Positions 19,463-52,033 of a DNA stretch of 64,000 nt are shown here, piece after piece. Position 1 is the first letter of the stretch. Each line of letters begins with the position of its first letter. Under the pieces are notes generated by a model. The model had not been told where the DNA came from and searched no databases. It was given only the letters and a program-made list of their open reading frames with translations. The position numbers and the translations under genes are program-made. This DNA is from a virus: UHGV virus genome UHGV-1353844. One strand, 5' to 3'.

Positions 19463-20347
19463 CTAAAAACCAGATATAAAGGTGGGTGCAATCCATCGCC
19501 ACTCCTGCCAGCGTGATCCTGTCATTGGTCCACACCAGACACGTTTCCAATGCGCCCTGCGTATGTGTGCTGCGCGATGTGGCGTTAAACAGATTCTCCT
19601 GCCTTCCCTGCGTTGTTTTTCTAAGTCTTCGCGTTGTACTGGACTTACGTCAACAACGACAGGTTCTCTGCGTGGGAGAATTTCTGTATCAGGTACGTAA
19701 CGTGTCGTTCTACCACGGTATTCCCGTCTCTCGCGTTCCGATTTCTTCACCCGCGAGGAAAGATATAAACCGATATGTACCTCATCCAGAAGTTCCTCGT
19801 CCTTTGACTCGTTAGCAAAGTAAGGCTCTAAACTAACAAAGTCATCTGCCTTTCTGTTGAACCGATAAATCTTGGTTGACCAACAGTGCCGCTGATTTAT
19901 CTCCACCCATCGTAAAACGAACAATACTTCCTCACCTTCGAATTTACGACGACCGATAAAGAGCGTAGCAGGAAGTTCGTTAATCTTGACAGTCACGGAA
20001 AAGGTGAATGAAGGGATGGCTTCAATCCACGCGTACGGAATGTCCGTTAAACGTTCTGTGTCTGCAAGTAACGCCATCAACTCGTTATCGGAGATAATTT
20101 CAATACCTGCGTATTGCCAACCCAAACCTAACGACTGGCGAATAGAATACGGCACCTGTTTGGTGGTGCCGAACTCACGGTACGTTGGGTCGTTAACGGG
20201 CAGAAAGGTTACGGGGAGTTGTCTCTTGTGTTCCCTGACAAACGTTAGAAACCGATCTTCTTTCAGACCAAACAAGTCTTTGTGTGCAGTCTCTATAGCT
20301 TCACTAATACGTCGAAGCGTGTCTCCATAAATTCTGCGTCTTAACAT
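19463..20347 (-). CDS. Hypothetical protein, paralogue A of a tandem pair (294 aa from internal ATG; track start is GTG at 20470)
   Basis: ATG (MLRRRIYGDTL) preceded by AGGAG at 7 nt. Shares LGxGWxYxG and C-terminal HIRRAHW motifs with 20358-21290. Confidence 0.5.
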   Translation of the reverse strand: MLRRRIYGDTLRRISEAIETAHKDLFGLKEDRFLTFVREHKRQLPVTFLPVNDPTYREFGTTKQVPYSIRQSLGLGWQYAGIEIISDNELMALLADTERLTDIPYAWIEAIPSFTFSVTVKINELPATLFIGRRKFEGEEVLFVLRWVEINQRHCWSTKIYRFNRKADDFVSLEPYFANESKDEELLDEVHIGLYLSSRVKKSERERREYRGRTTRYVPDTEILPRREPVVVDVSPVQREDLEKQRREGRRICLTPHRAAHIRRAHWKRVWCGPMTGSRWQEWRWIAPTFISGF

Positions 20348-20357
20348 TATAATTCTC

Positions 20358-21290
20358 CTAGTCTTGCGTGTGGGGTACGTAGCCTCGGACAAATGTCGGT
20401 GGAATCCAGCAAAGTTTTCTCTTCCTTTCCCCATCTCTTGGACCGACCCAATATCTACGCCAGTGCGCACGACGAATGTGCGCAGCTTTGGCGTGTTTGA
20501 TACCCTGCATGGCTTTCAAGTCGGTGTTAAATCCTTTTAGATATTTTACTTGTCCTGGTGTGATATCAACCTTAACATCACGTTCTCGCGGTTTAACGTC
20601 GTAACTAATACTACCGTTCTTTTTGATTTCCCTGAACTTAATATCATTAAAAGACTCCCTGTAATTAGGCGGGATTAGCGTGCACAGAAATATCATCGAA
20701 GTGGCGGCTTTGGCCAGAGATAACCATAACATCTTCTCTTCTTCGGTCTGTACGCCAGTTGTATAATCAATTTCAACAAGCCCGTTTCCTACACTACGAA
20801 GCTCTAACGAACAAGTGGCAATTGTGGTAACTCCTTCTGTTAACCCGTAATCAGTATTTGTAGCGATTATAATAAACCTTCTCTTCCCATTTTTTCGATA
20901 GCCGAGAAAGAAAGTCTCATCCTCTTTACCTACGTCGATTGCCACAGTCCATGCGGGTATAAAGTCCAACCATTCTTCAGGGAATTTACTGGGCATCTCA
21001 GTCTCGAAAACAAGTTCTCTAAGTGCTTGGTTGGATATTAAGGAAACCCCGCCATATAGCCACCCGATTGCCAACGTTTGTGCGTGAAGGGAACGTGGAT
21101 CTTTGAGACCTAACTCAGTGTCGTAGGGTATAAAGGAATTGGTTAAATGGTTACGATTCTTTTTTATCCATTTCGAGACAGGATTTTCTTTTGTTTGGTT
21201 TTCTTCCATGACATTTTCTAGATGCTGACTCCCCATTTGTCTAAGACAGTCTTTAATACCTTTTACTTTTTTACTTTTGTACAAATACAT
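20358..21290 (-). CDS. Hypothetical protein, paralogue B of a tandem pair (310 aa)
   Basis: C-terminal AAHIRRAHWRRYWVGP...WIPPTF matches AAHIRRAHWKRVWCGP...WIAPTF of neighbour. Confidence 0.5.
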   Translation of the reverse strand: MYLYKSKKVKGIKDCLRQMGSQHLENVMEENQTKENPVSKWIKKNRNHLTNSFIPYDTELGLKDPRSLHAQTLAIGWLYGGVSLISNQALRELVFETEMPSKFPEEWLDFIPAWTVAIDVGKEDETFFLGYRKNGKRRFIIIATNTDYGLTEGVTTIATCSLELRSVGNGLVEIDYTTGVQTEEEKMLWLSLAKAATSMIFLCTLIPPNYRESFNDIKFREIKKNGSISYDVKPRERDVKVDITPGQVKYLKGFNTDLKAMQGIKHAKAAHIRRAHWRRYWVGPRDGERKRKLCWIPPTFVRGYVPHTQD

Positions 21291-23179: not shown

Positions 23180-23851
23180 CTATCTAAGAAAGTTTTTAGC
23201 GAAATAAGGTTCGATGTGAAACTCTTTTACGAGAGAATCATAGCCGGAGTGAATCTGATCGGAGTTGAGTAGGAAACGGCCTAGATCGTGTGGAAGTATC
23301 CAGGCGTCACCTTGTTTGAAAATAGTGTGACCTACAGTTTCTGGAGAAAGTCGAATTTCTTCCGGGAAGGGATACGTTTGTTTCAAATCAAGGTCGGTGG
23401 GTTTTAAGGTAACTAAACGAACGGGTCGTTTACTGGCCACCTCCTTAACGAACTGGTTACGATCAAACCAGATAATCTTTTCAGGGTAGCTTTCCAGCTC
23501 ACTCCAGACTTTGTTAATCACCAGATTAAAGTTGTGTTGCAGTTCCCCAGACTGGTTAGCGTAGCCTAAGCACTCTTCTACCAAAACAGGATTACCGTAA
23601 GTGTTCGTAGTACCCTGTGCAATCACACGTTGTGGGAAACAATCTTTCGGTATATCACAACCTGCATTGTACAATGCAATGATTTCCCACAATGAGCGTA
23701 AGGCAAGTTCAAGTGCTACTTCCCCGAGTGTATAGTGGTCGTCAGAATAGGGGGCTTTAAAGCCCCACTGCTGACGCGCAATTGCTGAAAAGCGTACCTG
23801 GATATAACTCGGTGCCATCGATAACGCTTGACTAAAAACAATCAGCATCAA
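23180..23851 (-). CDS. Hypothetical protein (223 aa)
   Basis: ORF; ATGA overlap with upstream RNase H gene. Confidence 0.5.
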   Translation of the reverse strand: MMLIVFSQALSMAPSYIQVRFSAIARQQWGFKAPYSDDHYTLGEVALELALRSLWEIIALYNAGCDIPKDCFPQRVIAQGTTNTYGNPVLVEECLGYANQSGELQHNFNLVINKVWSELESYPEKIIWFDRNQFVKEVASKRPVRLVTLKPTDLDLKQTYPFPEEIRLSPETVGHTIFKQGDAWILPHDLGRFLLNSDQIHSGYDSLVKEFHIEPYFAKNFLR

Positions 23852-25359
23852 AGTTCCTTATCGGTCAATATTCGTTTGTTTGAATAATAACCACACCACA
23901 GACCGTGATACTTCTCACCGATATACACTAACGCGTATTCAACGTACTGACGTTCTGGACGACGTACAGCGACGTAGAATCGTCCATTCGGTTCTTTGAT
24001 ACGGTTGATTTCCGTACGCGTCGGTAGGTCGATAGCGCGTGTCAAAATAGTTTTAACGCCAACCTTCCCGTTAGGGATTTTAATGGAAACGTCAAACCCT
24101 TTATCCACGTTTCGGTAAAAGTCTTTGGTGGGTTTACCTTTTTCGTCATAAAGCAAATCGGTAATGTCATTTAAGACAACGTTCGATTTGCCTTCCAAAC
24201 AGTCACGCAGCCACTCTGCCAGTTCATCACGAATGGTTACGCAGCGGTATGACAATAACGCGGGACGCAGAATACGACTGATAGACAAGTCTTCGTACAT
24301 CCACAGGTTTTTGTCTTCGCTAAAGTGCATTTTGTCAACTGGGATACCGTTAGCCGCTGCTTCCGCAAACTTCTTACGTTTTACGAACAGGTTGAACACA
24401 ACAGCGATAGGGTCAAACTGACGCAAACGTGGTACGCCCTCCCAGGCTTTAGCAGCGTGAGCGTTAACCAAATCGTAAACGTTCGTCCACGGCTCACGTG
24501 TAAACATCACACAAAACTGCGCATCAGGAATGTATTTTCCGACGAAGACAATATCGTCCTTCTGTTTTGCGTGGTTACCCCCGAACATGTAATAGAGATT
24601 TTCACCGTTTACTTTAACTGTAGGGTGCTGCTCATTTACCATCGGGTAACAGAACTTAGTTACGCAAATATCAGGAAACGCGGCAACGTTAACGCCTTCA
24701 CTGACGATTTCTTCCTGCTGTTCTTCCGGAATTTCGTCTGCCGACCAGTACGCCTGATAATCTAAGCCTTCTCCGTGTGCAGAGATGGACGATCCTTTTC
24801 GTGCCAGCCCGTCAGCCCGTTCGTTACCGTAGTGACCAGAGTGTCCTTTGATTTTAAGAACACGAATCCCTTTTCCTTCTTTCTTCAGACGTTTCTTAAT
24901 TTCCCACATCCGTTGAACCAGCTCAAGGTTTGCGATAGGGGTTCCATCAGCCCGTCGCCAGTCCCGCTTAGCCCAACCGTCAATCCAATCGTTAAACGTA
25001 TTCACAACGTAAGACGCATCGATATAGATAATGTAGTTCTTTGCAACGAACGGTGCTTTTTCGAAAACGGTTAAAAAAGCAACAATCTCTGCAACATCGG
25101 AGTGGTGGTGTTTCGGTACCGGAATAACACAGTCTACGAACTCAACAGAGTCTGGTAACGCAGGAAGTTTTTCCTCTTTGTTAATCTGGCGATAACCAGA
25201 GGTCGTAATCCCTTCGGGAATGGTAGGGTGGCGATAAACGCCACCGTCAACAATCTCTTCCTTGTTAAACAGGTAGCCGTGAATCCCACCGCCTGTTCCC
25301 ATCGGTGAGGTTAAATGGCTACCGTCGGTATAAAGTACAGCAACATCAACGTTCTTCAT
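23848..25359 (-). CDS. RNase HI-domain protein (503 aa): N-terminal type-1 RNase H domain fused to an uncharacterised C-terminal region of about 300 aa
   Basis: YTDGS at N-terminus; IDASYVVNTFNDWIDGWAKRDWRRADGTP...KIKGHSGHYGNERADGLARKG aligns with recalled E. coli RNase HI (TDSQYV...WKKRGWKTADKKP...[20 protein letters not shown]). Confidence 0.8.
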   Translation of the reverse strand: MKNVDVAVLYTDGSHLTSPMGTGGGIHGYLFNKEEIVDGGVYRHPTIPEGITTSGYRQINKEEKLPALPDSVEFVDCVIPVPKHHHSDVAEIVAFLTVFEKAPFVAKNYIIYIDASYVVNTFNDWIDGWAKRDWRRADGTPIANLELVQRMWEIKKRLKKEGKGIRVLKIKGHSGHYGNERADGLARKGSSISAHGEGLDYQAYWSADEIPEEQQEEIVSEGVNVAAFPDICVTKFCYPMVNEQHPTVKVNGENLYYMFGGNHAKQKDDIVFVGKYIPDAQFCVMFTREPWTNVYDLVNAHAAKAWEGVPRLRQFDPIAVVFNLFVKRKKFAEAAANGIPVDKMHFSEDKNLWMYEDLSISRILRPALLSYRCVTIRDELAEWLRDCLEGKSNVVLNDITDLLYDEKGKPTKDFYRNVDKGFDVSIKIPNGKVGVKTILTRAIDLPTRTEINRIKEPNGRFYVAVRRPERQYVEYALVYIGEKYHGLWCGYYSNKRILTDKEL

Positions 25360-25361
25360 TC

Positions 25362-26096
25362 TTAATCCCTGGTTAACTGATCACGAATCTGTGGTGGAAT
25401 ATACTCACCGGTTTTCAGTTCTTCGTGACAGGCTTTAGCACGTTCGTACCCGTACTCGCGGGTAATCAGTGCAAGGTGATAAATACGTGCGGTGGTGTAA
25501 GCTTCTTTCGCGGCATCCCACAAAGCATGGTGTTCAAATGCCGGTTTACCCCGCGTCCAGTAAACTTGCTCAACGGTCAAGTCAGGCTCAAAACCAAACG
25601 CCAGCGCTAAACGTTCTGCGGTGCGGTCACTGTCTAACGCGCTGAACTTACGGAATTTACCTGGAGGGACGTCACATTGTGCGAATGCGTTCATGAAAAT
25701 CGGAGAATCGAAATCTGGCCCACGCATGGTAATAACGAAATTGTGTTTGCCGGTGATTTCGTCTAACCACTTACGCATTGCCCACAGCGCTTCCGGCATA
25801 GGAGTTGTACCACCCCATGCTTCCGTGTAGGCTTCACGAGACGGTGCGTATTCAGGTTCTCCTTTACCTTCCCACCACCCCACGGTTTGCGGGTCTTCGT
25901 GGAACACAGCTTTTGCTTTAGGGTCGTTAGGATCAATACGCATATACGACGACCCTACCATTTTTAAAGTCGGTACGTCAAAGGCAACTAAGCCTGTGGT
26001 TAACAAATACGCATCAGGACGCAGTGATTTGGTTTCTGCGTCAGCACCAATTACCAGCGTCGGTAAGGTGGGTTGAATCGTTTTCGGGTATGTCAT
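25362..26096 (-). CDS. DEDDh-type 3'-5' exonuclease (244 aa), DnaQ/DexA-like
   Basis: Exo I-like motif VIGADAETK and C-terminal HHALWDA (H-x4-D); motif-level call. Confidence 0.5.
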   Translation of the reverse strand: MTYPKTIQPTLPTLVIGADAETKSLRPDAYLLTTGLVAFDVPTLKMVGSSYMRIDPNDPKAKAVFHEDPQTVGWWEGKGEPEYAPSREAYTEAWGGTTPMPEALWAMRKWLDEITGKHNFVITMRGPDFDSPIFMNAFAQCDVPPGKFRKFSALDSDRTAERLALAFGFEPDLTVEQVYWTRGKPAFEHHALWDAAKEAYTTARIYHLALITREYGYERAKACHEELKTGEYIPPQIRDQLTRD

Positions 26097-30822: not shown

Positions 30823-31302
30823 TTAGAAAAGTGGGAGGTTACGCCATTGACCTACGGAATAGAAAGCTTTCGGGTGCTTACGAATATAGTCTTTCGCTTC
30901 TTCCGGTAACCAGCGCTCACCCGCACGTTTCTGCTGAGCAACAATAACAGCCAGCAACAAATAAGGATTCTTTGACCCAGGGAATTTTGCATTCGTTTCT
31001 AGCGCAATATCCAACATCGATTCCCAGCCCAGTGTTTTAGACTGAGCGGGTAAACGGTCTTCGATATACATCAGCCAATTCATGATTTCTCTGGGTTTAA
31101 ATGGACAGGTGTAGTTCGCCCAGCTTATCATGCAAAACTTAATAATCTTTGCAAACACCCACAGCGGTATAGCCACGAATACGCAGAAAATCACCATTTG
31201 TTTCGTAGGGACGTTTACGAACGTCACTAACAGTAGAACGGTGACTACCTCTAATACCACGAACCAAAAGCGGGTTGGGTAACGCCAGATAAACTTCAAC
31301 AT
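30823..31302 (-). CDS. Membrane protein (159 aa) with about 2-3 N-terminal TM helices; possible holin-like or other membrane function
   Basis: FWFVVLEVVTVLLLVTFV and IFCVFVAIPLWVFAKII hydrophobic segments. Confidence 0.45.
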   Translation of the reverse strand: MLKFIWRYPTRFWFVVLEVVTVLLLVTFVNVPTKQMVIFCVFVAIPLWVFAKIIKFCMISWANYTCPFKPREIMNWLMYIEDRLPAQSKTLGWESMLDIALETNAKFPGSKNPYLLLAVIVAQQKRAGERWLPEEAKDYIRKHPKAFYSVGQWRNLPLF

Positions 31303-31335
31303 ACCTTTGCTCCTTTAGGGGAATAAATAAAAGTA

Positions 31336-31359
31336 CCCCTAATCCAATCGGATTAGGGG
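31336..31359 (-). terminator. Terminator hairpin (CCCCTAATCC-AATC-GGATTAGGGG) with A-tract on + strand
   Basis: 10-bp stem after end of gene at 31366; coordinates approximate. Confidence 0.5.
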
Positions 31360-31365
31360 CAAGTA

Positions 31366-31875
31366 TTAAAAGAACGGCTGGTTTGGAATCACGGCAAATT
31401 CCAGAACGAAGATGTGTTCAGGGGCATCTGCCTGACGCCAGATTTTGTGCGTAGTCGCCAGTTTCTCCAGAATCGTCAGGAAGCTACGCTGGCAGTAGGT
31501 GTTCTCACCCAACAGCAGATTCTGTAACTCTACAGTGGCTTCCATATACGCTTCTTTAAAGACCTGGTTTGGATTGTATTTACCGGTGTAGTGCCACAAC
31601 AGAACTTTCCCTTGCTCCGTGTCTTTCACACTCGGACGTAATCCGCAAATCCACAACAAGGCAAGGTTGACGTTCCAGTCAAACTCTAAACCTTCTTCTT
31701 CGTCATCACCGAAAGCCGTTTTAAGGGCATCGTAAAACTCATGACGCGTTGCAAAGTCTTCGTCGGACTTTATCTGGTCTTCGCTACTGCTACGAACGAT
31801 GCTATATACGTCCTGGGCAGTAAGTTGGGTAGCCTTAGTGATACCTTTATACCAATCGGTTACAACGATGCTCAA
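31366..31875 (-). CDS. Hypothetical protein (169 aa)
   Basis: ORF; ATGA overlap with upstream gene. Confidence 0.5.
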   Translation of the reverse strand: MSIVVTDWYKGITKATQLTAQDVYSIVRSSSEDQIKSDEDFATRHEFYDALKTAFGDDEEEGLEFDWNVNLALLWICGLRPSVKDTEQGKVLLWHYTGKYNPNQVFKEAYMEATVELQNLLLGENTYCQRSFLTILEKLATTHKIWRQADAPEHIFVLEFAVIPNQPFF

Positions 31876-32585
31876 AGGGTGACTCCTTGTTTAAATGGAA
31901 AACTGGTGTTTATCGTATCCCAAATTCGGTTAACTTCCGCTAACTGAATCTGGCGTTCTGGTTTCTTCGCAAACGCAAGCTGACGAGATGCTACAGGCTT
32001 GTCGATTTTCGCACTGTAGAACGTTGCATCTTTCATAAAGCTCGCCATTTCTCGTTGTGCTGCCCGAGACTTGCTTTTAATCCTGGCGTGTGCACCACTT
32101 TCACCCCAGTGATAAGCCAATGCAATTTCTGCAATAGTGGGCTTGCGTTTGAGTCGTTTAGTCAACCCCTTTTCTAAATGTTTAACGTAGACGGAAGCCA
32201 ATAGCACCGCATTACGAGGATTGTACAAATCCGCATTGCGACTAAGTCCGATTTCGGCACCGTAGAGTTTTAGCAAATTGCGCTTTGTGCTCGGTAGCAT
32301 CTGAACCAGACTGTGCGCTTTAGACGTTCGATTATACGCCTTCGGATTAAACCGTGACTCTCGATAGATTAGCGTGGTCATCAAATTAGGATCGACACCC
32401 TGCTTTCGAGAGATTTCCACAATCAACGGTTTTACCCGTTCGAAACGGTCTTGAATCATTTCGAATTCACGATGGTGTTTGGCATTGGGCGCGGATTTGG
32501 ATGCGTATGCGTTAAACGCGAAAAGTGTTACCAGTAAAAGAAAGAAAATACGAAACATACTAGTTCTCCAGTTGGATTTATACAT
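31872..32585 (-). CDS. Secreted lytic transglycosylase (SLT domain) with N-terminal signal peptide (237 aa); candidate endolysin or periplasmic muralytic enzyme
   Basis: Signal peptide MFRIFFLLLVTLFAFNAYA; SLT motifs YRESRFNPKA (ES motif), SLVQML (GLMQ-like), AYHWGESG (AYNxG-like). Confidence 0.6.
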   Translation of the reverse strand: MYKSNWRTSMFRIFFLLLVTLFAFNAYASKSAPNAKHHREFEMIQDRFERVKPLIVEISRKQGVDPNLMTTLIYRESRFNPKAYNRTSKAHSLVQMLPSTKRNLLKLYGAEIGLSRNADLYNPRNAVLLASVYVKHLEKGLTKRLKRKPTIAEIALAYHWGESGAHARIKSKSRAAQREMASFMKDATFYSAKIDKPVASRQLAFAKKPERQIQLAEVNRIWDTINTSFPFKQGVTL

Positions 32586-32658
32586 TTCCGTGTTCCGTAG
32601 AACGAAATCACGGCGCGGACAGCTGGAACTCCTTTGTTGTGTGCCCTAATGATAATAT

Positions 32659-33183
32659 CTATTTAAAAAGGTTTGGAATTAAAGGTTTTGCTTCTTGGTA
32701 AAGCGTATCGGGTAAATAGAAACAGTATTGTTGTCTCCTTGGTACGAGTTTCTTTTCGATAAACAAAAAGATTTGTTGACGTTCAGCTTTTGTCAACCAA
32801 CCGTTAGCCATCCCTAACGGCGGTAAAGCCACCCCACCCTCTAAGTTTTCTGCGGCATCTGCCAACGCGGTGATACCCGCGATAACATAAGAAACCTGGG
32901 ATTTCAGTTTCCAATGTGTTTTTGTTGGTAAGAGAATGCAGTTTTCCTCGGGATAAACGTACACATTCCCTATTCGTATTTCGTTAGCGAAGCAACGTTC
33001 TCGGTAGTCCTGATAAAGCTCAGGATAGCGTTCTCTGCACGCTAAAGCGATACCCCGACCCATTGCCCCTACGCAATTTATCGTAACGACCTTGAAGCGC
33101 TCAGGGGCGTTAAACAGGTCGTTGTCAATAACCGATTCTGGAAGTATCGTTAGCATAACGGTCTTACCGAGTGAGGTAAGCAT
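32659..33183 (-). CDS. Stand-alone macrodomain protein of the DarG/TARG1-type ADP-ribosyl hydrolase clade (174 aa)
   Basis: Motifs VVTINCVGAMGRGIALACRERYPELY, LPTKTHWKLKS and GVALPPLGMANGWL match recalled DarG macrodomain blocks ([50 protein letters not shown]). From memory, not a search. Confidence 0.55.
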   Translation of the reverse strand: MLTSLGKTVMLTILPESVIDNDLFNAPERFKVVTINCVGAMGRGIALACRERYPELYQDYRERCFANEIRIGNVYVYPEENCILLPTKTHWKLKSQVSYVIAGITALADAAENLEGGVALPPLGMANGWLTKAERQQIFLFIEKKLVPRRQQYCFYLPDTLYQEAKPLIPNLFK

Positions 33184-33256
33184 AATTGATGCACAGGGAT
33201 AAACCGCGTTCCGCCAATCGCTAACTCAACCAAAATCGCTATATACGTTTTAGACA

Positions 33257-33631
33257 TTAACGATTCCTTTTCACCCATTGACTGATAACGGACTCTAGCC
33301 CTTCATGCTCGAGACCGAGGCGTTTCATGGCAAGGTGCAATTCCAGCGTGTGCGTAATCTGTTCTCGGGTTTGGGCGTCGTTCATCTTCTCCCAGACCTT
33401 CTCCAGATTAATGTTAAATCTTGACAGCATATACGCTTCACGACACGCACCACGACGCCACAAACTCGGTTTAACGAACGGTAATTCGATTTCTGGAATC
33501 AGCCACAGTAGTTTATTAACCCGCGTAAGTTCACTGCCACCGATTTCGTGACACTGATAACAGATTTGTAAGATGTCGCTGTTATCCAGTGGTTCACTAA
33601 ATAGGTACGGGGTTTGGGTTCCTGGTAACAT
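33257..33631 (-). CDS. Hypothetical protein (124 aa)
   Basis: ORF downstream of macrodomain gene region. Confidence 0.45.
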   Translation of the reverse strand: MLPGTQTPYLFSEPLDNSDILQICYQCHEIGGSELTRVNKLLWLIPEIELPFVKPSLWRRGACREAYMLSRFNINLEKVWEKMNDAQTREQITHTLELHLAMKRLGLEHEGLESVISQWVKRNR

Positions 33632-33833
33632 CTGGATTCTCCTTAGGCTCGAAAGGTGATTCAGGTGGCAGCGTTCCTAACGCGCCTTGAATACAGGCCG
33701 TCAGTTCAGGTTTACCAAAACACACCTGACCGATCTTGCCCACGTTGGGATGCTGGAGAAATGCTTTTGCGCGTTCGTATTCTTTCCAGCAAATGCTTGT
33801 ATCCATTCCACCTACACCGAAACTGTTTAACAT
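33597..33833 (-). CDS. Possible small protein (78 aa); overlaps start of 33257-33631 by 35 nt
   Basis: ORF only; no strong RBS seen. Confidence 0.25.
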   Translation of the reverse strand: MLNSFGVGGMDTSICWKEYERAKAFLQHPNVGKIGQVCFGKPELTACIQGALGTLPPESPFEPKENPDVTRNPNPVPI

Positions 33834-33899
33834 AAGTAGCTCTCCTGACGTAAAAATCTCACACTCATAGTGAGGAACGTCAAGAGAGCCTTTATTGTT

Positions 33900-34343
33900 T
33901 TAGAAAGTTTTGCTGAAATCCACCCATTCTTTATCGTGAGAATAGGTTGCTTTGTAGCCACGACGAATGAAATACTCTTTCGCTTCTTTGCACTTCGTGT
34001 ACATCCCAATGGCAATTTCACCGAATGCTTCATCAGCGGCTATCGCTTTGAAGATTTCTTTCATTACCCCGCGCTGACGGTAATCAGGCAGCACGTATAA
34101 CGAACGAATTTTGAGTACCCCGTTGCGATTACGGTAACTGCAATAACCTACCGCAACATCGTCGATATAAATCAGAACAACACAGTTGCCTTCGATCAGT
34201 TGACGCACGTTTAATTTCGGTACAGCGGTTTTGATTTTCAGCATCGTTGCTTGGTGATCTAAGTAACGGTAATGGAGTGCGAGTAAATCTTTCGCTTGTT
34301 CTTCACCGATTTTAGAAAGTGCGTTCAACAAATAAATTTCCAT
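33900..34343 (-). CDS. GNAT-family N-acetyltransferase (147 aa)
   Basis: GNAT motif A region LYVLPDYRQRGVMKEIFKAI. Confidence 0.55.
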   Translation of the reverse strand: MEIYLLNALSKIGEEQAKDLLALHYRYLDHQATMLKIKTAVPKLNVRQLIEGNCVVLIYIDDVAVGYCSYRNRNGVLKIRSLYVLPDYRQRGVMKEIFKAIAADEAFGEIAIGMYTKCKEAKEYFIRRGYKATYSHDKEWVDFSKTF

Positions 34344-34375
34344 TTATCAGACCTTACAGACGCAAAAAGATGAAA

Positions 34376-34504
34376 TTAAAACCAACGTCCAATGATAAAA
34401 GCGGCTGCGGCGAGAAGCAGTACGGTAATAAAACCCGCACCCCATGTTAGTTCCGCGTTATATAAAGCGCCGATTGCAGCATTGGTAGTATTGACAACAG
34501 TCAT
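34376..34504 (-). CDS. Small hydrophobic peptide (42 aa, MTVVNTTNAAIGALYNAELTWGAGFITVLLLAAAAFIIGRWF), not in ORF track
   Basis: Hand translation; GAGGG RBS 6 nt upstream of ATG; one predicted TM helix. Confidence 0.3.
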   Translation of the reverse strand: MTVVNTTNAAIGALYNAELTWGAGFITVLLLAAAAFIIGRWF

Positions 34505-34554
34505 GGTTTTCCCTCGTAAAACGCCCTCCCAGTTACCCAGGAGGGGGTTCTAAC

Positions 34555-34665
34555 TTAACTGTGCGTAGAGCCTTTGAAAGCCCATCCGTACTTATTAATC
34601 AGCCAGTTGAGAGATTTCCCAATAACCCACAACGACCCAAGTGTTAACAGAATACCCTCAATCAT
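34555..34665 (-). CDS. Small membrane-associated peptide (36 aa, MIEGILLTLGSLWVIGKSLNWLINKYGWAFKGSTHS), not in ORF track
   Basis: Hand translation; ATG overlaps TGA of the upstream 66-aa ORF (ATGA coupling); GGAGGG upstream. Confidence 0.3.
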   Translation of the reverse strand: MIEGILLTLGSLWVIGKSLNWLINKYGWAFKGSTHS

Positions 34666-34862
34666 GACTTCCCTCCAACACACCGCCACTCACATTCGCG
34701 TTGGTGCCAAATTGAACCCCAGGCGAGTCTAATCGCGTACGCTAAGACCACCCATAAAATCGCCGTTATACAAAATAGCACGTACAGAATGGCAACCAGC
34801 ACCATGACGCTAAACCCTAAAACGCTTAGTAACTGACGCCACCAATCAGTTTGCGTAGACAA
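34662..34862 (-). CDS. Small membrane protein (66 aa) with two hydrophobic segments; overlaps 3' end of the SbcC-like gene
   Basis: LLSVLGFSVMVLVAILYVLFCITAILWVVLAYAI; 17-nt overlap with upstream gene. Confidence 0.4.
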   Translation of the reverse strand: MSTQTDWWRQLLSVLGFSVMVLVAILYVLFCITAILWVVLAYAIRLAWGSIWHQRECEWRCVGGKS

Positions 34863-37350
34863 TTTTTACTCCTTCGTTGTAAACCGCAGGCAGTGTTACG
34901 CCTTCAGGTTCAATAACACAGTATGCGGCTTCGTTAAGTTTTGAATGAATTTCTGCTTCGTGAGATACCACCAGTAACTGAGAGAACTCACCGGAATTCG
35001 CCAGGGTTTTAATAAACCCGACAAGATTATTTCGGTGTTCCTCATCCATCCCTTCTGACGGTTCATCCAACAGTAGCGGATACTGATGAAGTTTCAGGGC
35101 TTTGTAAGCGGTTAAACGAAACATCAAATTAAAGATGGCCCGCTGCGCTTTCGACCCTTTCCGCACGTCAGGTACCGGTTCAGGATGAGTTTTCAACTGC
35201 ACTGGGAACGTGTAGTCTAAGTCACCGTCGGTTAAGTCACACGGCATGACCCGCATAGGGTAGGTCCAGACTTGTTCGATATATCGCGTCATTAATTCTG
35301 TGATTCTCACGATAGCGTTGTAGAAGTATTTGCGTAATACCCCTTTCTCGGGCGAGAACGCTTGAATCATCAGCTTGTTATTAAATTGCTGCGCTTGTAA
35401 ATCCGATAACTCCTTTTCTAACGCAGTAAGTTGGTTGAGTTCGTTTTCCATCTGACGGTACCTTTCCCGTGCTGTGGTGAACGCATCCAACTTGTTTTCT
35501 CGGGCGTTTAATAACGTTTCGACCACCGTGTTGGTTAATGTTACCTTAACGTCGTTCTCTAAACGCTCAAAAACCGCATTAAAATTGTCTACAGTGACTT
35601 TAAGTTCGTTTAGATAACAAAAGGTATCATTAGCAACTGCGTGCTCTCTACGGCGCTCTGAGAGCGTTTCTGTTGCCTTACCCAAACGTTCCTGCTGGAA
35701 GGCAATTTTCTGCTGTAGTGCACCGTCAACGTTACCTACCGCTGCAACCGCATTTTCCCACTCTTTTTCCGCTTTAGCAAAACGCTGTTTCGTTTCGTGG
35801 TACTCAATTGCGGAATAAAGTTCACGATCGAACTCTGCGCACAGACTGCCAAACTGACTGCGGTTATCCGTAAAGACATTCCGCTCCTGGAGACGTTTAA
35901 AGAACAAACTCAATACCGGGTCTTTCGAGTATGTTAAAACGATTTCCCGTACTTGACGCATGTAATTAACGTCCGACTCTAATTCCGTACGGTCTCGCAA
36001 TACGGAATCAAGTTGAGTCTGTAACGTATTACGTTGCTCCATTTGTCCACGAATGGCTTCTTCCAATTCAGGCAAAGAACGACGGACACCCGGACGGAAT
36101 TTAAATTGACACTGCGGACAATCAACCTCGGCGGTTTCCAAATAGTGATTCCGTTCGTGGTTGAGATTCTGCAATACATTTTCAACACGCTGTAACCTGT
36201 CACGCAACCCAGATGAGTTTTGGTCTAAGGTCAACAGTTTCTCTTCCAGTACGTTCAACCGCTCCGTTGACTTAATAGCATCCAGTGTTGTTCCTAAACG
36301 TTGTCCCCAGACACGCGCATCGGTTGCTGCTTTAAGCTGGTCGATGTTAACGGTCTCTGCAAACAGTTCAGGGAAAAGGTGCTCAGTGTCCCACTGCTTT
36401 ATTAACTCGCGTAGTTTCGCAACCGTGTTTTTTAACCCCTCGTGATTCCGCATCAGGTAATCTTGGCGAGTGGACTCGTCCATCAACAAAGACAAATCTT
36501 TGTTTAGCATGGATAGTTCTGTTTCAGCAGAGACCACCGCTTCACGGGCAGTGGCTTCAATCCGTCGTGCTTCCTCTACTTGTTCTTCCGTAGGTAATCC
36601 GCCACGGTGTTCCAAGATAGCATTAATCGGTGCTTCGATTTTAAGCAATAGCGATTGAATCGTTGCCACCGTAACGTCACGATTCAGACCAGGCAGTTGT
36701 TCAATCTGTTTGTTGAGTTCACGTAAATCCGCTTCTAACGCTTTTAACCGCGTTGCTAATTGCTGACGTTCCTCTTCGTTATCAATTACGCGGGTACGCA
36801 ACTCTGCAATCTTGCGGCTGGTGATTTCAATACCACCGTTTAGCATCGTCAGGTTTTTTCGTAAACGTTGATAAAAACCTAACGCGTAAGTTAAGTCTGA
36901 CGTACTTAAACGGTAGAACCACTTACGGCGCAGTTCCGTTCCTGCATCCGTTAAAAGCACTTCCCCGTTCAGTAACTCTTTAATCTCTTTTGTAATGCCC
37001 GTGATTTCTTCTACGCGAGAGTTATACACTTTCGCATTACCTTGCTCGACGATTTTGGTACCCGTCGTCAGGTTCTCGATATCGCAAACCAATGAGTTGC
37101 CTTTACGTGCAACCTTAAATTTGTAACGATGGTCGTTAACCAAACAGATATTGGTGTAAGAACCCCCGTCACGGAATTCGGATTTCGAAGGTGCGATAGG
37201 TAGAAACACGGACAGTAAGCTGGTCTTACCGCAGCCGTTACCACCGAGGATAATGGTGGTTGGGGAATGGATAGTAAAATCGAAGGTTTCGATTTCGTGT
37301 AACCCCATTCCGGTAAATCCTTTAAGTACAATACGTTCAACTTTTAACAT
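34846..37350 (-). CDS. SbcC/Rad50-like SMC-family ABC ATPase with long coiled coil and CxxC zinc hook (about 834 aa from ATG at 37350; track start GTG 37368)
   Basis: Walker A GGNGCGKTS; central CPQC hook; C-terminal LLLDEPSEGMD (Walker B/D-loop) and VVSHEAE (H-loop); GGAGG RBS before ATG at 37350. Confidence 0.7.
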   Translation of the reverse strand: MLKVERIVLKGFTGMGLHEIETFDFTIHSPTTIILGGNGCGKTSLLSVFLPIAPSKSEFRDGGSYTNICLVNDHRYKFKVARKGNSLVCDIENLTTGTKIVEQGNAKVYNSRVEEITGITKEIKELLNGEVLLTDAGTELRRKWFYRLSTSDLTYALGFYQRLRKNLTMLNGGIEITSRKIAELRTRVIDNEEERQQLATRLKALEADLRELNKQIEQLPGLNRDVTVATIQSLLLKIEAPINAILEHRGGLPTEEQVEEARRIEATAREAVVSAETELSMLNKDLSLLMDESTRQDYLMRNHEGLKNTVAKLRELIKQWDTEHLFPELFAETVNIDQLKAATDARVWGQRLGTTLDAIKSTERLNVLEEKLLTLDQNSSGLRDRLQRVENVLQNLNHERNHYLETAEVDCPQCQFKFRPGVRRSLPELEEAIRGQMEQRNTLQTQLDSVLRDRTELESDVNYMRQVREIVLTYSKDPVLSLFFKRLQERNVFTDNRSQFGSLCAEFDRELYSAIEYHETKQRFAKAEKEWENAVAAVGNVDGALQQKIAFQQERLGKATETLSERRREHAVANDTFCYLNELKVTVDNFNAVFERLENDVKVTLTNTVVETLLNARENKLDAFTTARERYRQMENELNQLTALEKELSDLQAQQFNNKLMIQAFSPEKGVLRKYFYNAIVRITELMTRYIEQVWTYPMRVMPCDLTDGDLDYTFPVQLKTHPEPVPDVRKGSKAQRAIFNLMFRLTAYKALKLHQYPLLLDEPSEGMDEEHRNNLVGFIKTLANSGEFSQLLVVSHEAEIHSKLNEAAYCVIEPEGVTLPAVYNEGVKIVYAN

Positions 37351-37406
37351 GTCCACCTCCATATTCACGGAGCGTGGTGTAAAAAGAAAAAAAATAAAAG
37401 AGAAGG

Positions 37407-46380: not shown

Positions 46381-47859
46381 TTATTTTTTTCTTGCACGGA
46401 AACGATGCATTTCCAAATAGACTTTTTCCCAGGGACCGAAAGGTCCTACGATTGCCTGTGCATCGTTAATTTTCTTCTGGTTATACCAACGGGCCTCACG
46501 GAACACGTAGTTTTGACTGTCGAATTCCGTGGTGTTAAATACCCATTCCCCTTCTTCCCACGTCGGCCAATAAGCAACGGTTTTACCGAAGCGGTTTAAC
46601 AGATAGCCCAGCTGTTTTTCCCCATCAGGGTCATTAGGATCTTTAAGGTATAAACGTCCCCAGATAGCGTTGTGAGAAACCCCCACAACTTCTTCTTCCA
46701 GATACGGATTATCCACCGTAAAGATAAACGACGACTCGTGGGTTAAAAGCGCCTTTAATGTTTCTGGGTTGCGGATACGCTGTACGCTGGTCGGGGATGA
46801 CAGATCGCCAACACCGATGCTATCCCAGTCGTAATAACGTCGGGTTTCTAACACAGTACGCGCAACGTCAAAGTTCGGTAACGAGACCATAATGGCTTTG
46901 TCGGAGAAGTACCCAGTAACCGGTAACCAGTGTATCAGACCCCCGATAACAAACCCCACGGTTTTACCCGTAATAGATTCCGGTAAAGAAATCATTAACG
47001 TGGAATAATAGTCACGGGTGGTGTCGAGTTTGTTTAGGGTCAAGTTAGCAATGGGGTACGTTTTAACATTCCCCAATTTACTAAAGACCATGCAGCCGAT
47101 ATCCGGTGTCCCTGCACGACGTACTATCTTACCCGCGCCCGGTAAACGTACACCAACTGTATCCGACTGATGTGGTACCCATTGACCGTTGATGTTGTAC
47201 AACACCCCGTTACGGTATTTGTCTTTCCATTTATCTTCGCAAACAATCACAACGTCGTCAGCATCGTCTATACTGAAATCTTGACTGTAATGGTAACCGG
47301 GAGGACACAGGTAGGTTTCTACTGGAACATCGGCATTAATCGATTGGTAGTGTGCCCAATCAAACTCTAACGTCGGTAAACCGTCTTTCAACGCAGAGAT
47401 AACCACACCGGCTTTTTCATTCAGCCAGTCTTGTAACGTATCGGTACGGTTTTGTAAGTCAGCGAGGTGATATTGGCTAATTAACGTATAGTCTTTACCA
47501 AGCGCACTCAGACCGACTTCGAAAATATGGTAATCAGAACACAAGGTTTCTAAGGGTTGCGTGACGTCGATGGCTCCCCAGGTACGGGTCTCTCGAGAGA
47601 AGCCAAAAGCGCTGTCAGGCCGCACTTGATAAGCAGTAGTCACAGCTCTTTTCCTCAATAGATTCAAGTCATAGTATGAACTCGACGCCCACGGACTATA
47701 GGAGTAGATAATGGCTGTCGTCCTAGACCCACACTTCAAAGAACCGGGGAATAAAATAACCGGTGAAGCGGTCGCCGTCATTGGTACGAAGTACCGAATG
47801 TTGGTACCTGCCCACGCCCCTTTTTTCACCACATCCCTGGTGGTCAAGAGCGGCGGCAA
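46381..47859 (-). CDS. Hypothetical protein (up to 492 aa) on the minus strand at the head of the tail-fibre block; start uncertain (track start is TTG; first ATG at 47781 has no clear RBS)
   Basis: Long ORF filling 46381-47710 where no + strand ORF exists; 5' end overlaps the divergent start of the 1440-aa gene. Confidence 0.45.
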   Translation of the reverse strand: MPPLLTTRDVVKKGAWAGTNIRYFVPMTATASPVILFPGSLKCGSRTTAIIYSYSPWASSSYYDLNLLRKRAVTTAYQVRPDSAFGFSRETRTWGAIDVTQPLETLCSDYHIFEVGLSALGKDYTLISQYHLADLQNRTDTLQDWLNEKAGVVISALKDGLPTLEFDWAHYQSINADVPVETYLCPPGYHYSQDFSIDDADDVVIVCEDKWKDKYRNGVLYNINGQWVPHQSDTVGVRLPGAGKIVRRAGTPDIGCMVFSKLGNVKTYPIANLTLNKLDTTRDYYSTLMISLPESITGKTVGFVIGGLIHWLPVTGYFSDKAIMVSLPNFDVARTVLETRRYYDWDSIGVGDLSSPTSVQRIRNPETLKALLTHESSFIFTVDNPYLEEEVVGVSHNAIWGRLYLKDPNDPDGEKQLGYLLNRFGKTVAYWPTWEEGEWVFNTTEFDSQNYVFREARWYNQKKINDAQAIVGPFGPWEKVYLEMHRFRARKK

Positions 47860-50800
47860 AATACTGACCTTAGGCGACGATTACGTTATTACACACCCGT
47901 ACGAGACCGGTATGTTGCGCACAGCCTATCTCGTGCACGGGATGATTTGGATTGTTAATGACAAATACAAATCGAATTTCACGGTAGATTACCACGCCGT
48001 AGGTTGTGGTGAAGCGACCCAAGAACAGATTACCGCAGAACGCGAACTCAATAAAGATAAATACCCGTCTGCGTGTCAATGGGATACCGTTATCGGCGAA
48101 GTTTACTTTCCACCGGTCGATATTCAGTTCGACTGGGAAAACTGGAAAGGTGAACTGGAATTAATGCAGGCCATTGCAGGCTTAGGTGATTCGTTAGGTA
48201 ACGTGGTGAATCGGGTAGACCCGATTGCACGTAACACGTTAGATATCGAGCATCGTGCTAATGGTACGGTTATCACGTCTGAACAGTACGCAACGTACGA
48301 CAACAAAGGTGGGTATACTTACAATACCGCTAAACGCCGTTTCTCCGTTACGTACAAAACCACCACGTTAAATGAATATTCCCTGTCGATGAAATACCGT
48401 ATTCCGGCTATTTTTCCGAATATGGGGAGTATTAATCCGAACGAACAAATCGATTGGATGTTGTGCTACGCGAACGGTGGCGCAAGTATCCTTCGTCTCC
48501 AATTAAAACAACGTAAAATCAGCCTACGACTGACAGTTGCGTTAGGCAGTGGTTCGACCGATTATGATTATACGTTAATCAACGGTTTGACCGACGATGA
48601 ATTAAAAGGCGAATTAACGTTTAGCGTTGTTCGTCAACCGGGTAACGGTGTATACGTTATCGAGGTGACGACTAACAAACAGTCCATGGACTACACCTTT
48701 AACGTTGACACACCGCCAGACGAATTCTCAGCAGGTTACACCAAAACGGATGTTGCGAAGTGGCTGAAGTACAAAACCAACGTTAACTTAAACTGGTGGG
48801 CGGCTGAGAACGATTATGCTCAATTCCTTGCGTTACCTGGTGCGCCAGAAGCAGACGTAAGTAACGACGTTTATCAGTTAATCGTTAAGTACCATCAGTT
48901 AGTAGAACAGCTCTATCGCAACGCGCCTGCGCACGAACACGTCACCCGTAAGGATAACCCACACGCTGACACCTGGGGTCCGATTCGTGCGTTAGAATTA
49001 AACGGCATTGCATCCGACGCAGCATTAGCCTACGGGAAAACTAAGGAGCAATTAACCGATTACGTAAACGCTAAGTACCCAACGCAGGCAACGTTAACCG
49101 CCCAGAAAAAACTGCTTCGTGAATCAGCGAGCAAGAACGTTAACGGCACGATTACAACGCTCCCCGGCTTTACGTCATTTACTACTGAAGTCGACCCAGT
49201 GTCGATGTCGAAGTACGTGAGTCCTTATTTTAGTGAAAGCTATGTTAGTAGTGGCCACAGATATCACGGTGCGCTTCGTTATACAGGAACGAAAAGCGGT
49301 TTCAGTGCTAACTTTAATGCGGTACCTGCCAACCTGCAAGATATTGACTTTATTGTTACCGGACGTAAAACAGCGTCTGGTAATGAAGCGGTCGGTAGGG
49401 TTGGTTTTCGTTTCTACGAAAATCCCGGTAGTAACTCCGGTAAGTACGTAGAGATTACCGGTGAAGTCTGGTCCGGTACTCTTACTATCGAACTGGCGTT
49501 GCACGGTTACGGTAGTCCTGTACCGGCAGTTCGGTATATTTCGCAAGCTCCTAATCCGGCAATACCGGATGGGGATTTTACGCTACGTTTTCAACTGAAG
49601 CGTACAGGGAATGTGTTTGACGTCGTTATTACCGTAAACAGTAAAACGTATAGCGGTCGGATTAACTTCAATAACATGGACGCTGCGTTAGAAGCATTAG
49701 AGAATCAGCACCACTTTAAATCGCTGATCAATAATGTTGCTGACGGCGTCAATATTAGTTCGCAAAACAAAGGTAACACGGTTACCATTAAGAAAGCACC
49801 TGGCGTTGTTGACGAGAGACGTTTAGGTGCTCAGTTTGTCGTTGATCCGAAATCCATTAAGTTCATCGGTCAAGGTTCTACTGACGTTAACGTGGGTAAC
49901 AACCCGGTAACGTTGCAAGCGGGAGATAACCAGCTTGTGCTATATCCTGATGACCGTGGATTACTGTGGCGCGGTAAGAAACTCTTAGACCCCACTACGG
50001 TAGCGCCGTATTTGCCGGGCAATACCGCAGGCGGTACGGGATTATTCTACGGTGCAACTACAGCTACAGTGGAACTTACGGGTAGCGGGATTAAAGCGTC
50101 GCCGTTTGTCGCAACGTTTATTCTTCCGGTTGCCGAAGACGTTACTACGTTAGCGTGTTGGCAGTTAACGGACGAATTCGGTACGGCTGAAAACCTCGCA
50201 GCAACCCCTGCGTTAATTGAAAAACTGGACGCAGAGTTTACCGGTAAGTTAGTTGCCGCCAAGTCGTACATCAACGACATGCAGCTTACCAGTTCGGTTA
50301 CTATCGACAAAATTACCTTTGGTTTAGGTAACGTTGCGAATACCCCGGACGTTGACTTACCGATTTCTGTTGCACAGCAGACCGAGCTGGACAAATACTC
50401 ACCGAAGGTTCACCAACACCCGTCTTCCGTATTCGGTGTTGCGAACGCAGACACCACGAAACGGGGCCTGATTAAATTCGGTCTGGAAGTGGATGATGCC
50501 ACTTTAGCGCTCGACGGTAGTGTGGTGATGGCGCAGACTTCCCAGATTGAAGATTTGGAGAATACCGTCGGCGGGGTTGACTCGGGTGCGCGCGTTGACA
50601 TTATTCGCTTTGGTAAGTCCGGTAACGACCTAATTGACGTTACGGTTAAAGACAAAATCCTAGTGACACTTCCTGCTTCCACGTATTTCGTTGGCGGCGA
50701 AACGTACGACGTGCCGTTGATGTCGGTTAACGTCACTGAACGTTTCCCGAATCTGAATAAGGAAATTTACGCAGGGATTTTTGTTGACATTGTCGATAAC

Positions 50801-52033
50801 AAAGCGAAGTACATTATTCACGACAGCTACAGTCAGGCTGAAACGGATACCATGACGCGCGTGGGTCTAATCGGTATTAACGACCTTTCTGAAGTGTTCG
50901 TTACTGAACTACGTAACGTGACACGGTTAGGCGATTTCCGTGAGCTGAAAGACCACGTCGCCAATGATAACGCACACATTCAGCGTTCTGCTTCACGTGC
51001 AGTGCTGGGGTTAAGCAATTTAACAGTAGGTGCGCCCTGCTGGGCTTCTGGACTTCAAGCGGTTGTGCGTGGCGAAGCAGACTGGCGTTATGTGGTTGGC
51101 GGTGGATATAAAGCACTCGATGGTGTGAAATACGACCAGCTTGCGTCGAAGTGGGTGTTTGATGCAAAAGGGGTAAGTGATAACGTTCACGGGTTTATCC
51201 ACAACCTGTTCCCGGTATTTAACAATGCGGGGATGCGAGTCAGTTGGGAAACCGAAAGCAACGCAAAAACCGGAACGGTGCTAGAAACCATCCTGGCTTG
51301 CTGGAAAAATACCGAAGACGAGTTTATGCGGTTGTCGTTACTTATCACCCGTGGTTATCGTTTAACCGACAGTAACGGTGAGTATTGTTACGCCGGGTTT
51401 GGTTTAAACTTCGGTAACGGGAAATCCGTGGTGTTAGGTTTCACGCCGACCAAACGCGTTACCCCAGCACCGTGGAGTACGTTACATCCTGACGTATCAT
51501 TTACCCACACGCGTGGTGCGAATAACGAATTAACGTTTAACGCAACGCTGACCTTAGCAGGTACTGTTTACACTATTGTGGTGTATTTGTCTGCGGCAGA
51601 TAAATACGTAAGCTGTACGGCGGCAGGTGGTACTACGCAGAAAATCTCGCTGACCGACCGTTTAACTGGGTTCAACCTCGCGCCTATCGTTAACGATCCG
51701 TACACCCCTATTTACTACGGTTTAGGGGGACTTTATGAGGACGAAGTGCGTGCTAATATCCGTTCTACGACAGACAGCATAACCGGGAACAAACTCTACG
51801 GTACGCTGTTGGATTATATCAGCAACTACTCCTCGTTAAATCGTGTACGCGTCATGGAATTGGCCGGGACAAGCTCAGACCCTGAAACGCTTAATGCGCT
51901 AGTGGCAACCGAGTTTAATAACAGCCTGGCGGATTACGCTGCGTTACCGATACCTCCTTATCTTAACAAGGAGCGCGTAATGTCGTTTATCGACACCAAC
52001 AATAAAGTGCAGGCGGTAATCATTCGCGATTAA
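47711..52033 (+). CDS. Tail fibre protein (1440 aa) with T7 gp17-like N-terminal attachment domain
   Basis: N-terminal pattern RMLVPAHAPFFTTSLVV...LGDDYVI shared with the three following genes and resembling recalled T7 gp17 (NIPFEYLARKFVVVTL...TDYRF); AGGAG RBS. Confidence 0.6.
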   Translation: MAVVLDPHFKEPGNKITGEAVAVIGTKYRMLVPAHAPFFTTSLVVKSGGKILTLGDDYVITHPYETGMLRTAYLVHGMIWIVNDKYKSNFTVDYHAVGCGEATQEQITAERELNKDKYPSACQWDTVIGEVYFPPVDIQFDWENWKGELELMQAIAGLGDSLGNVVNRVDPIARNTLDIEHRANGTVITSEQYATYDNKGGYTYNTAKRRFSVTYKTTTLNEYSLSMKYRIPAIFPNMGSINPNEQIDWMLCYANGGASILRLQLKQRKISLRLTVALGSGSTDYDYTLINGLTDDELKGELTFSVVRQPGNGVYVIEVTTNKQSMDYTFNVDTPPDEFSAGYTKTDVAKWLKYKTNVNLNWWAAENDYAQFLALPGAPEADVSNDVYQLIVKYHQLVEQLYRNAPAHEHVTRKDNPHADTWGPIRALELNGIASDAALAYGKTKEQLTDYVNAKYPTQATLTAQKKLLRESASKNVNGTITTLPGFTSFTTEVDPVSMSKYVSPYFSESYVSSGHRYHGALRYTGTKSGFSANFNAVPANLQDIDFIVTGRKTASGNEAVGRVGFRFYENPGSNSGKYVEITGEVWSGTLTIELALHGYGSPVPAVRYISQAPNPAIPDGDFTLRFQLKRTGNVFDVVITVNSKTYSGRINFNNMDAALEALENQHHFKSLINNVADGVNISSQNKGNTVTIKKAPGVVDERRLGAQFVVDPKSIKFIGQGSTDVNVGNNPVTLQAGDNQLVLYPDDRGLLWRGKKLLDPTTVAPYLPGNTAGGTGLFYGATTATVELTGSGIKASPFVATFILPVAEDVTTLACWQLTDEFGTAENLAATPALIEKLDAEFTGKLVAAKSYINDMQLTSSVTIDKITFGLGNVANTPDVDLPISVAQQTELDKYSPKVHQHPSSVFGVANADTTKRGLIKFGLEVDDATLALDGSVVMAQTSQIEDLENTVGGVDSGARVDIIRFGKSGNDLIDVTVKDKILVTLPASTYFVGGETYDVPLMSVNVTERFPNLNKEIYAGIFVDIVDNKAKYIIHDSYSQAETDTMTRVGLIGINDLSEVFVTELRNVTRLGDFRELKDHVANDNAHIQRSASRAVLGLSNLTVGAPCWASGLQAVVRGEADWRYVVGGGYKALDGVKYDQLASKWVFDAKGVSDNVHGFIHNLFPVFNNAGMRVSWETESNAKTGTVLETILACWKNTEDEFMRLSLLITRGYRLTDSNGEYCYAGFGLNFGNGKSVVLGFTPTKRVTPAPWSTLHPDVSFTHTRGANNELTFNATLTLAGTVYTIVVYLSAADKYVSCTAAGGTTQKISLTDRLTGFNLAPIVNDPYTPIYYGLGGLYEDEVRANIRSTTDSITGNKLYGTLLDYISNYSSLNRVRVMELAGTSSDPETLNALVATEFNNSLADYAALPIPPYLNKERVMSFIDTNNKVQAVIIRD

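Follow-up and report, generated by a model that had tools for sequence, protein, structure and literature searches.

The window analysed in this work, a stretch of 64,000 nucleotides from the virus genome UHGV-1353844, carries on its minus strand a gene for a solo DarG-type macrodomain protein. Because this protein is 62% identical to and syntenic with gp217 of Erwinia phage Asesino (YP_009290835.1) and homologous to gp104 of phage PhiKZ, we identify its gene, on sequence grounds, as an orthologue of AdfM, the "anti-DarT factor macro" named by Morgan et al. (Cell Rep 2026; PMC13309987). The protein family was already known and was published under that name in 2026, so that the assignment is correct but not new. 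With high probability the protein represents an orphan macrodomain half of DarG2 that would be imported into the phage nucleus and there remove DarT2-derived ADP-ribose from phage DNA, properties that we transfer to it from the published work on AdfM of PhiKZ, PhiPA3 and Asesino.

Results

Gene and start codon

The open reading frame extends from an ATG to a stop codon on the minus strand (32659..33183) and encodes 174 amino acids. This was the protein length given in the preliminary description; the ORF exists, but the real product is probably a protein of 165 residues that starts at Met10 (ATG at 33156). The shorter form is favoured because homologues mostly comprise 161-166 residues and their alignments begin at residue 10 or 11 of the long ORF, and because an identical 165-aa product is recorded in an ENA metagenome contig (ERZ27295778, contig k119_2122) and in a Logan contig (SRR29133893), whereas a look-up of the exact 174-aa product in public records yielded no entry. 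The 174-aa call was seen in a single homologue (98% identical), the remaining ones having 161-166 aa. The nine-codon extension is probably not translated. All features are listed in Table 1, and residues are numbered according to the 165-aa form throughout; nine has to be added for the 174-aa ORF.

Table 1. Features of the 64,000-nucleotide window; positions count from its first nucleotide.
Feature	Position	Strand	Basis or remark
adfM-like gene, stand-alone DarG2-type macrodomain, 165 aa + stop	32659..33156	-	ORF, profile matches, model, homologues
Possible nine-codon N-terminal extension MLTSLGKTV	33157..33183	-	only with the upstream ATG (33183)
Asn27 codon (Asn36 in the 174-aa ORF); equals Taq DarG N22, PhiKZ AdfM N23	33076..33078	-	invariant alignment column
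First glycine-rich loop GAMGRG, residues 30-35	33052..33069	-	aligned with DarG GVMGKG
Catalytic Lys79 codon (Lys88 in the 174-aa ORF), PTKTHW motif; equals Taq K80, PhiKZ K78, TARG1 catalytic Lys	32920..32922	-	alignment
Second ADP-ribose-binding loop PPLGMANGWL, residues 112-121	32794..32823	-	alignments
SLT lytic transglycosylase	31872-32585	-	neighbour
Small unknown ORFs	33257-33631, 33597-33833	-	neighbours
GNAT acetyltransferase	33900-34343	-	neighbour; Pfam Acetyltransf_1, 2e-8
840-aa SMC/SbcC-like ATPase	34846-37368	-	Pfam SMC_N, 1.3e-8; 69% identical to Asesino gp207
Thymidylate synthase	7527-8561		61% identity to Asesino gp251
RNase H-domain protein	23848-25359		homology to GCA_014613015.1 and Asesino genes
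Rv2179c-like 3'-5' exoribonuclease	25362-26096		homology to GCA_014613015.1 and Asesino genes

A strong Shine-Dalgarno sequence was not found upstream of either candidate ATG (33183 and 33156); the Asesino adfM gene, by contrast, is preceded by AGGAGA. The nine residues encoded before the probable start loosely resemble the first nine of the gene, MLTILPESV, with 15 of 27 nucleotides identical. Considered as a duplication, this similarity between the first and second 27 nucleotides of the long ORF is not significant and may go back to an old short duplication or to chance. A scan for sigma-70 promoters and terminators around the gene gave nothing beyond shuffled expectation, which says little because these jumbo phages transcribe with their own RNA polymerases. 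Compared with a 77%-identical homologue, the gene exhibits a dN/dS ratio of 0.126 (range 0.10-0.16). It is real and under purifying selection, and its product is most likely an active enzyme.

Fold and family assignment

In the preliminary description the protein had been taken for a DarG/TARG1-type macrodomain on account of three motif blocks, all of which are present in the given order in the translation of 32659-33183 (NCVGAMGRGIALACRERYPE, PTKTHW and PPLGMANGWL). Profile searches and structural comparison bear out this assignment. The similarity lies well above chance level. The NCBIfam profile antitoxin_DarG (NF048014) matches with an E value of 1.7e-31 at positions 7-154 of 338, its score of 109.7 bits falling short of the equivalog cut-off of 250, and the PADLOC DarG profile matches with an E value of 6.8e-32 at positions 6-150 of 329, both matches covering only the N-terminal macro half. 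Against about 109 bits for these two DarG profiles, the generic Pfam profile Macro (PF01661) gives just 20.1 bits (E 6e-4), below its gathering threshold of 22; a precomputed PF01661 match is present on some close homologues. The generic profile is weak for the DarG/TARG1 subclass. PHROG 335, labelled "phosphatase", is matched with an E value of 2e-30.

When the PDB was searched by sequence, the DarG macrodomains of Mycobacterium tuberculosis (5M3I, E 2.6e-21) and Thermus aquaticus (Taq; 5M31/5M3E, E 2.3e-18) were retrieved, the sole other match being the DarTG fusion from Thermosipho (7OMU). An AlphaFold2 model built from 40 homologues (pLDDT 94.8, pTM 0.90) displays the alpha/beta/alpha fold of macrodomains with its ADP-ribose-binding cleft. 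The same four entries, all DarG or DarTG, are the best Foldseek matches of this model in the PDB. They are led by the Taq DarG macrodomain (E 5.7e-13, TM 0.84), with identities of 30-33% for the three DarG macrodomains, and are followed by TARG1 and then by viral and other macrodomains. Foldseek returned 210 PDB matches at E≤1e-3, and those listed are macrodomains or constructs derived from them, save for a few engineered or fusion proteins.

Profile coverage, model and Foldseek alignment agree that the protein stops after the macrodomain and that the C-terminal DarT-binding domain of DarG is absent, as had been proposed. The 25 C-terminal residues were considered as an extra domain or import tag and proved to form the final strand and helix of the macrodomain (model; 155 of 165 columns aligned by Foldseek). 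The second expectation, that darT is not adjacent, held as well: DarT or other ADP-ribosyltransferases were found neither among the ten neighbouring proteins, which comprise the SLT transglycosylase, the GNAT protein, the SMC-like ATPase and unknowns, nor, in Pfam and PADLOC scans for these families, among the window's 60 remaining ORFs with a length of 100 aa or more. Since both the DarT-binding domain and an adjacent darT gene were sought and neither was found, the protein is not a DarG antitoxin. It is a solo DarG-type macrodomain and would act like the enzymatic half of DarG.

PhiKZ gp104, with the sequence taken from the methods of the AdfM study (PMC13309987), aligns with the window protein at 35% identity (E 4e-28), and 64% identity is shared with SPN3US gp070. 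A solo DarG2-like macrodomain homologous to both PhiKZ gp104 and Asesino gp217 is thus present. The wider family is architecturally diverse and encompasses 4518 representatives at E≤1e-3 (1312 at E≤1e-10), many of them DarG-like with an N-terminal macrodomain and a C-terminal domain. Solo DarG-like macrodomains about 41% identical to PhiKZ AdfM also occur in Escherichia and Shigella phages of about 76 kb (SkaterBoy_Bas90, EcoN5, KM01, ShigP1) and in Proteus phage phiP4-3; no nucleus is formed by any of these phages. In the AdfM study the family is described for chimalliviruses only (PMC13309987). Actinophages likewise carry such solo proteins.

Active site and ligand loops

Asn27 and Lys79 of the window protein are equivalent to the catalytic residues N23 and K78 of PhiKZ AdfM, and the DarG-type N-terminal macrodomain is complete with its catalytic lysine and asparagine. 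In Taq DarG, exchange of K80 for alanine abolishes activity, and the catalytic lysine is common to TARG1 and DarG (PMC5179494); a role of the asparagine is documented for N22 of Taq DarG (PMC5179494) and for N23 of PhiKZ AdfM (PMC13309987). Among 40 homologues, the columns of N27, G30, M32, G33, G35, T78, P112, G115 and G119 show no variation, and conservation at K79 and W120 is at least 90%. The preliminary description had made conservation of the catalytic lysine and the glycine-rich loops a touchstone of its assignment, and both are conserved.

Residue by residue, Taq DarG and the window protein agree at N22/N27, K80/K79, T20/T25, T79/T78, H82/H81 and W83/W82 as well as at the loop positions G117/G115, N120/N118 and G121/G119. 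K29/R34 and G119/A117 are conservative changes, and the active PhiKZ AdfM likewise has alanine at the latter position. Real differences are confined to Q34/A39 and G122/W120. The ADP-ribose contacts of Taq DarG include the loop residues G117, G119, N120 and G121, and for the aromatic residue W83 a stacking interaction with thymine has been proposed (PMC5179494).

Trp120 takes the place of the second glycine in the NGG motif of DarG and PhiKZ AdfM and is near-invariant in a clade formed by the proteins from SPN3US, Asesino and the window, in which the loop reads PPLGMA(N/H)GWL; Asesino has histidine for asparagine (MAHGWL). In one alignment, the window protein is 38-40% identical to bacterial DarG macrodomains versus 32% to PhiKZ AdfM. 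Since similarity to DarG equals or exceeds that to PhiKZ AdfM and gene neighbourhoods differ between the clades, AdfM may have entered the chimalliviruses in one event or in more than one. It appears doubtful that this clade is a functional variant rather than plain AdfM, with an altered substrate range or an origin by independent capture of a DarG macrodomain. Were it one, the bulky tryptophan could shift the range towards other base-linked or RNA-linked ADP-ribose or towards divergent enterobacterial DarT toxins; alternatively, enterobacterial jumbo phages could have captured a DarG macrodomain on their own.

Genomic context

The gene is phage-borne, as had been assumed. At the protein level the window is collinear, in reverse orientation, with the region 144-212 kb of jumbo phage Asesino (26-84% amino acid identity), the matched genes including those for tail and virion proteins, UvsX, thymidylate synthase and the SMC-like ATPase. 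The window homologue of a gene annotated as RNA polymerase beta subunit is 84% identical to its Asesino counterpart. Asesino is reported to be a nucleus-forming chimallivirus. From the collinearity with it we infer that the source phage may also belong to the nucleus-forming chimalliviruses; the chimallin and PicA genes are not contained in the 64-kb window. A megablast search of the phage collection with positions 31000-35000 did not return a near-identical DNA match.

The gene order SMC, GNAT, macro, transglycosylase is common to SPN3US, Asesino and a 226-kb phage contig in a Salmonella enterica assembly. Because this local order is conserved in relatives and the GC content of the gene equals that of its flanks, the gene is a long-standing resident of this jumbo-phage lineage, and recent horizontal acquisition is rejected on the same observations. 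Local synteny with PhiKZ-like phages and Goslar was looked for and not found. In every relative examined, the GNAT gene is found upstream of adfM at a distance of two to three genes, and the SMC-like ATPase keeps its place near both in SPN3US, Asesino and the Salmonella-assembly contig. The PADLOC matches obtained in the search for a partner toxin, to LmuB and JetC, reflect only weak SMC-type similarity of the 840-aa ATPase and of coiled-coil proteins taken together, without assignment to single ORFs.

Several further observations concern the surroundings of the locus. The Salmonella-assembly contig (AAWEAX010000007.1 in GCA_014613015.1) is a related jumbo-phage genome, with 77% identity between its AdfM and the window protein. 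Ahead of the conserved block it has a tandem pair of YfjT-family (PF27224) genes (240-1192 of the locus). In the window, the adjacent minus-strand ORFs 19463-20470 and 20358-21290 have overlapping ends and are both 26-28% identical to Asesino gp235, which suggests that a gene of unknown function has been duplicated in tandem. The ORFs 46381-47859 (minus strand) and 47711-52033 (plus strand) overlap head to head by about 150 nucleotides. The former encodes a conserved protein of 492 aa (80% identical to Asesino gp191) and the latter a virion-protein homologue of 1440 aa that aligns to Asesino gp190 over about 800 residues only; the true starts of both are probably located further in. ARAGORN detected no tRNA genes in the 64-kb window.

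Discussion

Our analysis places the window protein in a family whose biological role has been established in other jumbo phages. In PhiKZ, PicA brings the macrodomain protein gp104 into the phage nucleus, and homologues occur in about half of the chimalliviruses, among them the proteins designated AdfM in PhiPA3 (gp108) and Goslar (gp83) as well as Asesino gp217, which bears this name in Figure 1 of that study (PMC13309987). Purified PhiKZ AdfM strips ADP-ribose from an oligonucleotide modified by DarT2 at a TNTC motif, the exchange N23A lowers this activity, and the protein rescues E. coli from DarT2 toxicity. PhiKZ requires gp104 for plating on DarTG2 hosts; AdfM deletion mutants of PhiKZ and PhiPA3 are sensitive to DarTG2, replicate less DNA and are blocked in packaging, and the proteins from PhiKZ, PhiPA3 and Asesino, when fused to GFP, localize to the phage nucleus (PMC13309987).

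The window protein resembles these proteins as a solo macrodomain of the DarG2 type, with about 165 aa and with catalytic asparagine and lysine, from a jumbo phage that is probably of the chimallivirus type, and it shares gene order in addition to high sequence identity with the Asesino protein. It differs from PhiKZ AdfM by its NGW instead of NGG second loop and from the PhiKZ and Goslar proteins by its gene neighbourhood, and its genome is one for which the phage collection holds no near-identical DNA. The published enzyme assays pertain to PhiKZ AdfM, just 32-35% identical to the window protein, and for the enterobacterial clade the published data consist of the GFP localization of Asesino AdfM only.

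On this basis the following course of events can be envisaged. Host DarT2, released upon infection, would attach ADP-ribose to thymidine within TNTC motifs of single-stranded phage DNA, and some of the toxin would get to the DNA despite the chimallin shell. AdfM of the window phage would be imported into and concentrated in the phage nucleus, where it would hydrolyse the bond between ADP-ribose and thymidine via Lys79, as in DarG and TARG1. Removal of this bond would restore replication and packaging, and the phage would be able to grow on hosts carrying DarTG2. AdfM would thereby act enzymatically on the damage in the manner of a type IV antitoxin, without binding the toxin. Reversal of DarT-dependent thymidine ADP-ribosylation as a counter-defence is the function that the preliminary description had put forward; the reaction has been demonstrated for PhiKZ AdfM (PMC13309987), and by analogy the window protein can be expected to catalyse it as well.

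Activity on a different substrate would mean that the protein counters another defence instead of or besides DarT2. Protein-bound Glu/Asp-ADP-ribose as for TARG1, phosphate- or base-linked ADP-ribose on RNA (CmdT-type mRNA, for example) and other base linkages come into consideration. Human TARG1 (C6orf130; 4J5Q, 4J5S), which removes protein-linked ADP-ribose, belongs to the same macrodomain subclass, has its catalytic lysine at the same position (PMC5179494) and is the next-best structural match after DarG (Foldseek TM 0.68-0.81). The location of the clade-specific Trp120 in a ligand loop, the replacement of Taq Q34 by Ala39 and the sheer size and architectural diversity of the family with its 4518 representatives point in the same direction. 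However, the protein is much closer to DarG (30-40% identity, E 1e-21) than to TARG1 (16-18%), and the aromatic residue of DarG for which thymine stacking has been proposed, replaced by alanine in TARG1, is retained as W82. Moreover, DarTG2 alone explains the phenotypes of the PhiKZ and PhiPA3 AdfM deletions (PMC13309987). We therefore regard another substrate as unlikely.

A housekeeping enzyme, that is an ADP-ribose-1''-phosphate phosphatase or O-acetyl-ADP-ribose deacetylase serving nucleotide or NAD metabolism of the phage, is a reading that we judge highly improbable. The "phosphatase" label of PHROG 335 and the annotation of several GenBank homologues as "Appr-1-p processing protein" would suit such a role, but both are generic names carried over within the macrodomain superfamily. 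Furthermore, the Pfam Macro score is far below those of the DarG profiles (20 versus about 109 bits), the catalytic lysine of the TARG1/DarG class is present, and DNA de-ADP-ribosylase activity has been shown for the PhiKZ homologue (PMC13309987). More remote still is the idea that the protein is the eraser partner of an ADP-ribosyltransferase encoded elsewhere in the phage genome, and that it regulates or limits the modification of host or phage targets by this transferase. Some phages do encode such transferases, one homologue from a Streptomyces phage lies under a feature annotated "ADP-ribosyltransferase", and the window's 64 kb represent only part of a genome of about 240 kb. Against this stand the failure to detect an ADP-ribosyltransferase or DarT in 60 window ORFs, the lack of any annotated one in the 140-240 kb region of Asesino and the dependence of the published AdfM phenotypes on host DarTG2 (PMC13309987).

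The protein can be compared with other known players in DarTG biology. With the DarG2 antitoxins of T. aquaticus, M. tuberculosis and EPEC (5M31, 5M3E, 5M3I) it shares the fold (TM 0.80-0.84), 38-40% identity over the domain, catalytic asparagine and lysine and the ligand loops. DarG2, though, is part of a bacterial toxin-antitoxin operon and possesses the DarT-binding domain, while the window gene is phage-encoded and lacks both this domain and an adjacent darT. AdfN (T4 gp30.3 and other phage NADAR proteins) embodies the same strategy, being an orphan ADP-ribosylglycohydrolase that resembles an antitoxin and clears phage DNA of the modification. Its NADAR fold is, however, unrelated to the macro fold; its target is guanine-ADP-ribose, the product of DarT1, and it gives no protection from DarTG2 (Nat Commun 2025; PMC11825919). 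The anti-DarT factors AdfA (RB69/T4 gp61.2) and AdfB (ICP1 Gp145) are also phage proteins, but they are small and non-enzymatic, bind DarT directly and are not homologous to the window protein.

As already shown experimentally, the phage nucleus provides an incomplete shield against defences that modify DNA, and a repair-type counter-defence enzyme is still carried (PMC13309987). The window adds one member to the AdfM family, from a lineage of which the phage collection contains no genome, and reveals that the NGW loop variant extends across the whole enterobacterial clade. In practice, adfM is a suitable annotation for the gene, and resistance to DarTG2 is predicted for the phage, a trait that matters when jumbo phages are chosen for therapy against DarTG2-carrying Enterobacteriaceae.
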